From positions 1-64,000 of the IMG/VR virus record IMGVR_UViG_3300044673_000097: a stretch of 64,000 nucleotides of DNA; one strand, written 5' to 3'. This stretch comes from a virus. Positions 51,159 through 51,480 of this stretch are shown piece after piece. The position numbers were made by a program, and so were the translations under genes. The first letter of the stretch is position 1, and every line of letters starts with the position of its first letter. The notes beneath the pieces were generated by a model that worked only from the letters and a program-made list of their open reading frames with translations, searched no databases and was not told where the DNA came from.

Positions 51159-51332
51159 CCTGCATCCAATCCAAGGCCGCGCATTGCAGCGACACCGCGC
51201 GGGAGTCAATCCGCCTGAGGCTCGCACTGCATCCCATAACCTTCCCACCGTGCATTGCAGCATCGACCCAGCGACCTGCGCAGCGGCGTCTCGTTCCTGC
51301 ACCCCATGGCGCTCCCGCACACGCATTGCTGC
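51159..51332 (-). CRISPR. degenerate mini-CRISPR array 2 (3 repeats, 2 internal spacers)
   Basis: Repeats at 51296-51332, 51226-51261 and 51159-51190 (minus consensus GC(T/A)GCAATGC...AT(G/T)GG(A/G)TGCAG); spacers 34 and 35 bp. Confidence 0.7.
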
Positions 51333-51354
51333 GGGTGTCGTAGGACGCACGCGG

Positions 51355-51480
51355 TTCCAATGCGTTGCGAGATGGTCTGCGAGCGGTACTGATCCGCGAC
51401 CCGTTGCCGGACCGCTTGGCTGTGGACCGCTCGCGGGTTGGCGAGCCAAACGCCTTTGGGCATTGCAGTATGCCCACGAT
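51355..51480 (-). ncRNA. putative tracrRNA 2
   Basis: Scaffold GGGCA-TACTGCAA-TGCCC-AAAGGCG..CTCGCCAAC; anti-repeat TCTCGCAACGCATTG at 51358-51372. Confidence 0.65.

Follow-up and report, generated by a model that had tools for sequence, protein, structure and literature searches.

Locus and Its Setting

We analyzed a stretch of viral DNA of 64,000 nucleotides (nt; hereafter the window), which makes up the first 64 kb of an 85,379-bp linear IMG/VR virus record (IMGVR_UViG_3300044673_000097; estimated to be 88% complete, with a G+C content of 65%) originating from rhizosphere metagenomes and present in four DNA runs from as many studies, two of which are its possible source. The focus is on the minus strand of positions 51159-51480, which, judged by its sequence, is a genuine second guide module (module 2) of a Cas12f-like CRISPR system, non-coding and homologous to a first guide module (module 1) in the same locus and to the arrays of related elements. 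The guide modules, the effector and the partner genes are all encoded on the minus strand (Table 1), in the order of scaffold 1 with its anti-repeat, a cis junction with a guide, the module 1 array, the effector, the partner and module 2, the latter being a non-coding region 3' of the effector-partner operon, with the genes for an HNH endonuclease and a terminase just downstream.

Table 1. Features of the guide locus, in window coordinates and in the order of transcription of the minus strand.
Feature	Coordinates	Strand	Size	Remarks
Scaffold 1 and overlapping anti-repeat	53857-53926	-		Scaffold, 53883-53926; anti-repeat, 53857-53894
Module 1 cis junction and its own guide	53791-53839	-		GGGTGCAGG; natural single-guide form
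Module 1 array	53617-53790	-		Repeats 53757-53790, 53686-53720, 53617-53650; spacers 53721-53756, 53651-53685; period 70/71
Cas12f-like effector	52105-53610	-	501 aa	RuvC-I Asp to His, RuvC-II Glu to Pro
Partner	51524-52108	-	194 aa	Start overlaps effector stop; N-domain of unknown fold, C-terminal leucine-zipper-like coiled coil
Scaffold 2	51437-51475	-		Hairpin 1 (GGGCA, loop TACTGCAA, TGCCC), AAAGG, shortened hairpin 2 (4 bp), CCAAC; by model R1 and pattern search
Module 2 linker, scaffold 2 to array	51333-51436	-		Long hairpin; AACGGGT (51405-51399), then CGCGG; degenerate cis junction
Anti-repeat of the earlier note	51358-51372	-		Pairs with repeat 1 alone, at chance level
Module 2 repeat 1	51296-51332	-	37 nt	5' GCAGCAATGC ... 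3' GGGTGCAGG
Module 2 spacer 1	51262-51295	-	34 nt	Foreign match
Module 2 repeat 2	51226-51261	-	36 nt	End GGATGCAGT
Module 2 spacer 2	51191-51225	-	35 nt	No match found
Module 2 repeat 3	51159-51190	-	32 nt	End GGATGCAGG
Non-coding tail	50983-51158	-		Between last module 2 repeat and next gene (50335-50982)

A Second Scaffold and Its Loop

A parallel between the two scaffolds had been drawn in an earlier note on this DNA, and it holds well. A covariance model (R1) built from scaffold 1 and eight units of a related element (L006), with module 2 excluded, retrieves positions 51475-51437 with a score of 34.1 bits and an expectation value (E) of about 5e-8, these values being roughly calibrated, while the next match in the window scores 12.5 bits (E of 0.12), and none is found in the remaining 21 kb of the phage. 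Likewise, the joint scaffold pattern occurs within the window only at 51437-51468 and 53883-53919, and in none of 100 shuffled sequences. As also noticed earlier, the stems of hairpin 1 differ between the modules at two pairs, both versions being able to pair (GCGCC/GGCGC in module 1 and GGGCA/TGCCC in module 2), and compensatory change is seen across the family: in an alignment of 15 R1 matches, 94.1% of the cells in the two hairpins are paired and 7 of the 12 pairs are changed on both sides, a result not equaled by any of 500 shuffles, while slid alignments, as controls, remain at or below 56% paired, with the limitation that the alignment was fitted to model R1, which favors the structure. 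The G-U pairs of the scaffolds are consistent with the gene-sense strand. Scaffolds 1 and 2 are true paralogs.

Every TGCAG end of the module 2 repeats is complementary to the hairpin 1 loop, CTGCA(A), through 5-6 Watson-Crick pairs, again in agreement with the earlier note. Loop and repeat end covary, with CTGCAA accompanying TTGCAG or TGCAG in this phage and TTGCAC accompanying GTGCAA in the related L006 and L002. Among these three elements, cognate combinations of loop and end form 5-6 Watson-Crick pairs versus 4 in non-cognate ones, a measure of complementarity only, and a small margin because the TGCA core is self-complementary. The loop hexamer CTGCAA is identical in scaffolds 1 and 2. 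A pseudoknot directly 5' of the guide is described as conserved in Cas12 guide RNAs (PMC10097598). The predicted pairing of loop and repeat end in this phage matches this pseudoknot, which TnpB and Cas12 guide RNAs have in common and which goes by the name of repeat:anti-repeat 1 in Cas12f.

Repeats of Module 2

The three degenerate repeats previously proposed for module 2 are present, starting at 51332, 51261, and 51190 (a period of 71/71 nt), with their TGCAG ends 70 and 67 nt apart. Their periodic signal consists of two conserved end blocks around a variable core that contains insertions and deletions. The 5' block, GC[AT]GCAATGC, has four sites in the genome, three of them in module 2, spaced exactly 71/71 nt, and the 3' block, GG[AG]TGCAG, has nine sites on both strands of the 85,379-bp genome, of which four belong to the minus strand of this locus, three in module 2 and one in the cis junction of module 1. 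With a gapped statistic for three copies, the maximum falls exactly at 51332, with a score of 32.5, which is reached by 0 of 150 shuffles and by 3 of 150 natural windows, all three of the latter falling inside a single gene with coding repeats of 66-72 nt. That gene (14217-16289, minus strand), encoding 690 amino acids, shows strong tandem periodicity of this length, and no other place in the genome surpassed module 2 in this statistic. When the module 2 repeats are aligned with those of the relatives L006, L002, and L007, common 5' TGCA and 3' TGCA[AG]G ends are apparent. The possibility that these repeats are whole degenerate copies of the scaffold was rejected, as model R1 does not match them. 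The array had been expected to escape standard finders, and general repeat tools did miss module 2; Tandem Repeats Finder found neither the module 1 nor the module 2 array, and Rfam produced only a sub-threshold match to RsmY (16.3 bits versus a gathering score of 57).

The module is spanned by an open reading frame (51111-51518), whose translation would have spoken against a guide module. No coding signal is found in any of the six frames of 51111-51520: the codon log-likelihood ratio is between -0.13 and -0.52, versus +0.2 to +0.48 for genes, and the G+C content at third codon positions is 0.60-0.68, versus about 0.8 in the phage genes. The codon statistics of the module 1 RNA region are like those of module 2, and the 135-codon product has no match in Pfam.

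Spacer Matches to Foreign DNA

Logan contigs of four rhizosphere DNA runs were compared with positions 50900-54100, amounting to about 1e14 comparisons, and most of the short matches obtained, with 4-8 differences in about 36 nt, are at chance level. One match involves spacer 1 of module 2: positions 51260-51296, representing the spacer (51262-51295) with 1 and 2 flanking bases, are identical at 36 of 37 positions to a 1361-nt contig of run X2 (depth 9.4), with unlike flanks on both sides and a chance expectation of 6e-7 to 4e-4. The 30-nt flanks in the contig do not resemble repeats, and the target with its flanks, as read by eye, would stay open in one frame. Near-identity confined to an island of spacer size, between repeats that are only about 70% alike, is consistent with selection having preserved a guide, and does not fit neutral decay. 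A match of spacer 2 of module 1 is only suggestive, even if placed on the spacer to within one base (53651-53686 versus an 816-nt contig of run X3, 33/36, with a chance expectation of 0.004-1.4).

No spacer has a match within the 85 kb of the phage itself, where the best alignment other than to self has 7 mismatches in 24 nt, and no exact spacer 24-25-mers are found in IMG/VR. The whole locus, when compared by blastn with 50,697 phage records, retrieves two chance-level matches only (E of 0.3 and 0.9), and runs X3 and X4 have no long contig covering module 2 (51114-51434). Separately, positions 53419-53450, inside the effector gene, match a 243-nt contig of run X2 over 32 nt with one difference (chance expectation 5e-4 to 0.14), and this contig could carry a host CRISPR spacer against this phage.

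Effector, Module 1, and the Phage

Among solved structures, AsCas12f is the best match for the effector (8j12, E of 4.6e-16 with the single protein; E of 1.5e-31 with the family profile), which also matches PF07282 (E of 5.5e-12). The zinc finger and the RuvC-III Asp are kept, while two of the three RuvC catalytic residues are replaced: in the printed alignment, the effector has His at the RuvC-I position, versus Asp in 8j12 and Ala in the 7wju chain, and Pro at the RuvC-II position, versus Glu in both. In an alignment of the effector family (A1; 19 members, 34-67% identical), the RuvC-I position is occupied by Asn in 13 members, His in 5, Val in 1, and Asp in none, the RuvC-II Glu is retained in 12, and there is hardly any variation at the RuvC-III Asp. 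Replacement of the RuvC-II Glu by Pro on top of the RuvC-I change is limited to the five closest family members. With the RuvC-I Asp missing from the whole family and the RuvC-II Glu also missing from these five, the pattern suggests stepwise inactivation, and the RuvC-I and RuvC-II replacements would be expected to abolish cutting.

Module 1 possesses three repeats of 34-35 nt, starting at 53790, 53720, and 53650, the last of which (53617-53650) overlaps the ribosome-binding site of the effector gene. The minimum-energy fold of 53792-53932 (minus strand; z of -2.07, with 6 of 200 shuffles as good) has the scaffold 1 anti-repeat paired in cis to a truncated repeat that precedes GGGTGCAGG, so that module 1 seems to begin with a unit in the form of a natural single guide.

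As to the phage itself, a tyrosine integrase (2162-3286, plus strand; PF00589, E of 4e-16) marks it as temperate-type, and, along with genes for a replication initiator, a DnaB-like helicase, the HNH endonuclease, a large terminase, a portal, and a major head protein, identifies it as a temperate-type tailed phage. No tRNA genes are found in the window. Across the 85-kb record, 88% complete as it is, no match is found to cas1 or cas2 (PF01867, PF09827), nor is a Mu-type DDE (PF02914) matched in the record, control genomes being equally silent for the latter.

Relatives

The closest relatives are P0004, P0006, and P0007 (67-51% identity). L006 and L005 represent one element sampled twice, with the effector 64% and the partner 51% identical to those in the window. 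In L006, eight near-identical scaffolds are present (3740-3990, 6043-6870), of which two lie upstream of the gene pair and six lie downstream, and thus the placement of guide modules to either side of the genes is characteristic of this subclade. The guide-preceding motif [GA][TA][GA]CAAG has 17 sites in L006 (two of which overlap), most of them within ...ACGG[GA]TGCAAG, some belonging to fused scaffold-repeat-guide units and some to bare repeats of 15 or about 33 nt. The spacers in this element are short, at about 17-30 nt, and show partial similarity among themselves. More distant relatives (L008, L010, L007, L002, and L003) possess ordinary arrays, with repeats of 35-37 nt and a period of mostly 70-73 nt (45-74 in L002). 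The scaffolds of L008, L010, and L003, recognized by eye, carry an anti-repeat to the repeat's GTCAGGTGTT, and L003 has a lone degenerate repeat after its partner gene. A single-protein scan of IMG/VR for further relatives returned none, and neither did searches of the same database with exact scaffold patterns, save for one false match inside an HNH gene (L011).

Interpretation and Alternatives

We propose that module 2, as part of a dead Cas12f-like system borne by a temperate phage, represents a paralogous two-hairpin scaffold and, after it, a degenerate mini-CRISPR array of three repeats. Transcription of the region would accompany or follow that of the operon, and the transcript would be processed into CRISPR RNAs (crRNAs), in each of which the UGCAG just 5' of the guide would pair with CUGCAA, the loop of hairpin 1, in a pseudoknot of 5-6 bp. 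As this loop is identical in both scaffolds, either of them could serve the module 2 guides. The loaded dead effector would then bind, without cutting, DNA matching the 34-36-nt spacers, and, as no spacer match is found in the 85-kb record, it would act on DNA outside of the record. We lean, if by a little, toward module 2 remaining a source of guides, which would be held for the most part by the pseudoknot with either of the scaffolds. The module is worn, with a short hairpin 2, a lost cis junction and no long anti-repeat, probably relies on the pseudoknot and the shared scaffolds, and is possibly decaying; it is probably not an independent, orthogonal pair of repeat and trans-activating CRISPR RNA (tracrRNA).

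A number of observations weigh against functional guides. The module 2 repeats are only 70-76% alike, and their ungapped triple identity, 12 of 40 columns, is matched by 66 of 300 shuffles and by 117 of 301 natural windows. Their local similarity to the L006 repeats is weak (108 of 1922 controls are as good), although the undisputed repeats of module 1 score worse. Hairpin 2 of scaffold 2, cut to 4 bp, is unique among full-length R1 matches, and the cis junction reads TCGCG versus TGCAG, module 1 and L006 having GCAGG and GCAAG, respectively, after the AACGGGT-type site. The fold of the scaffold 2 and linker region has a z of -1.54, with 18 of 200 shuffles folding equally well; no promoter- or terminator-like site for module 2 was found on the minus strand, and only one of its two to three spacers is matched. 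The repeat:anti-repeat duplex of module 2 is not significant with either scaffold region, with an energy z of about 0, and, while the proposed anti-repeat at 51358-51372 scores 33 with repeat 1, its scores with repeats 2 and 3 are matched by 82 and 159 of 200 shuffles, respectively.

These observations bear differently on the competing explanations. A decaying relic, in which a duplicated or ancestral module without working guides persists undeleted, module 1 doing the work, would account for the truncated hairpin 2, the TGCAG gone from the cis junction, the missing anti-repeat, the diverged repeat cores and the weak fold, and we consider it possible, if on the unlikely side. It would not be expected to leave both terminal blocks in all three repeats in exact 71/71-nt phase, nor a spacer that is 36/37 identical to foreign DNA next to repeats that are about 70% alike, which is the reverse of neutral decay, and guide units after the partner gene are found in the relatives as well. 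More doubtful still is the scenario of the earlier note, of one effector using two diverged pairs of tracrRNA and repeat, in which the anti-repeat at 51358-51372 would serve the diverged repeats of module 2 and the two guide sets would not be interchangeable. The helix with repeat 1 can indeed be drawn as described, 15 bp with one bulge, but in a helix-type local alignment against 200 shuffled repeats it is equaled by 12 of them, it is absent for repeats 2 and 3, and the duplex energies are at the shuffle mean. For the module 1 repeats and their anti-repeat, only 1, 0, and 0 of 200 shuffles are as good, with duplex energy z between -2.0 and -5.2. One further detail is in favor of orthogonality: the last base of repeat 2, a T, pairs with the A before CTGCA in loop 2 and only wobbles with the G of loop 1 (6 versus 5 Watson-Crick pairs). 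However, the loop hexamer is the same in both scaffolds, hairpin 2 is truncated and the cis junction has no TGCAG. With the module 2 anti-repeat at chance level and the loops identical, nothing shows two orthogonal pairs, and this part of the earlier proposal is not upheld.

It is very improbable that there is no guide module here at all, and that the region represents a small protein gene (the open reading frame at 51111-51518), signals for protein binding or packaging that precede the HNH and terminase genes, or chance similarity. Both the 135-codon open frame and the location just upstream of these genes would fit, but the frames carry no coding signal and the product has no Pfam match, the scaffold homology is significant and accompanied by compensatory changes, and an island of spacer size matches foreign DNA at 36/37 positions.

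Returning to module 2 as a source of guides, a broader scenario may be put forward, tentatively and with more doubt than confidence. In this lineage, a Cas12f CRISPR locus may have become a fixed guide set, distributed around a dead effector and its dedicated partner, with scaffolds copied along with guides (two here, eight in L006), and with some crRNAs docking by the 5-6-bp pseudoknot alone, without a repeat:anti-repeat duplex. If true, the system would be a living intermediate between tracrRNA-dependent CRISPR arrays and single-guide arrays, and a means for a temperate phage to silence genes of its host or of rivals. Should the module 2 guides be loaded, a Cas12f-type protein would be seen to accept crRNAs held mainly by a 5-6-bp pseudoknot, which would bear on minimal guide design for miniature Cas12f tools, as well as on the evolutionary interconversion of split (tracrRNA plus crRNA) and single-piece guides. 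The locus suggests how viruses may maintain a small, fixed repertoire of guide RNAs for binding other DNA and possibly silencing it, and the multi-scaffold arrays of L006 are of an architecture that array finders are unlikely to report.

Comparison with Known Systems

The type V-F1 Cas12f systems (AsCas12f, Un1Cas12f) share with this locus a homologous effector, a scaffold RNA, a short pseudoknot 5' of the guide, repeats and spacers of about 35 nt and, as far as module 1 is concerned, a long repeat:anti-repeat duplex. In contrast to these systems, the RuvC-I Asp and the RuvC-II Glu are replaced here, cas1 and cas2 are missing from the 85-kb record, the system is phage-borne, a 194-aa partner is present, the modules are placed on either side of the genes, and module 2 has no long duplex.

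Another dead Cas12f relative is represented by the dCas12f homologs, which are linked to sigma-E, with a further CRISPR-linked cluster, and which are described as binding DNA via guide RNAs for regulation (PMC13472631). By the same account, full-length guide RNAs and discontinuous CRISPR arrays occur together at one locus, and a cluster of dCas12f adjoins arrays, the proteins being C-terminally truncated with part of RuvC lost, linked to sigma-E or to a helix-turn-helix protein, and without a tracrRNA. As compared to that description, the effector here keeps the zinc finger and the RuvC-III Asp and is changed through substitutions, its partner is a different one, and module 1 has a tracr-type anti-repeat. 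No link to sigma-E or helix-turn-helix proteins is seen, the partner having no Pfam family above the cut-off, and no self-target is present in the record. An overlap between this system and the CRISPR-linked dCas12f cluster is possible.

TldR, the TnpB-like dead repressors of prophages, are also described as temperate-phage-borne dead proteins of the TnpB family with an adjacent guide RNA, presumed to repress selected genes. By that description, they differ in having a single omega-RNA-like guide and no arrays or tracrRNA, versus the mini-arrays, the repeated scaffolds and the partner here. Cas12m (type V-M) is likewise described as binding DNA without cutting and as being borne by plasmids and some prophages, and one phage locus is reported to be without a tracrRNA. 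Identity of the effector with Cas12m was rejected, as no Cas12m chain is found among the PDB matches at E up to 0.01. Cas12m is not known to need a tracrRNA. The coexistence of single-piece and split guides has a counterpart in TranC and its split omega-RNA intermediates (Jin et al., 2025, as cited in a review): the cis unit and the trans repeats of module 1 are comparable, and so are the fused scaffold-repeat-guide units and the bare short repeats of L006, while the TranC proteins are described as active nucleases of transposon origin. CasMu-V, a type V CRISPR-associated transposon system in which Mu transposase genes adjoin a Cas12 that has lost RuvC-III, was considered and rejected, as the RuvC-III Asp is kept, the replication and packaging genes are lambdoid-like, and the integrase is of the tyrosine type.

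As a whole, the system resembles the dead TnpB/Cas12f regulators (TldR, dCas12f) and Cas12m, and differs from them in the mode of inactivation, the partner, the tracr-type module 1 and the repeated scaffolds. Dead regulators of the TnpB/Cas12f kind are known from prophages and Bacteroidota, to which this system would contribute the case of a temperate soil phage that has a conserved partner of unknown fold and guides directed at DNA outside the phage. No description of the family, of the partner or of double modules was found in the literature, figures and supplements (among them Extended Data Fig. 1 of PMC13472631 and Data S2 of PMC10910872, which may include it) being outside the search.

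Partner Gene and Minor Observations

By tblastn, the partner gene is recognized at six distinct loci, with identities of 33-63% (the window, L005/L006, L003, L008, L010, and L002), while no match is obtained in L004, L007, or L009 (the record of L009 being cut at the gene). Its position varies: it is located after the array in L008 and L010, and before module 2 in this phage. The partner protein has no Pfam, NCBIfam, or PDB family beyond the coiled coil, and a protein atlas provides leads only, in the form of DUF3102-like phage proteins (score 0.90, TM 0.47-0.53). PF28362.1, an accession precomputed for a partner homolog (P0024), was not returned by the Pfam search. No stretch of the partner alignment is conserved enough for scanning.

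The last repeat of module 1 reads TTGGAGG, versus TTGCAGG, which provides the effector gene with its ribosome-binding site and disrupts the pseudoknot, leaving 3 pairs. A ribosome-binding site, that of the partner gene, is likewise abutted by the last repeat in L003 (5755-5800). The L003 arrays have no match of at least 20 nt in the rest of the 137-kb record. At 6433-6449, immediately upstream of the lone repeat that follows the L003 partner gene, a motif of 14-17 nt with a GTCACGTGAC-like palindrome is present, and it recurs at six other places in the record (seven alignments), including 111587, 115174, 87388, 87979, and 134004; the alignments at 87388-87407 and 87391-87406, as well as those at 134004-134017 and 134005-134022, represent the same sites on both strands. 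This motif may be an operator or a promoter element.

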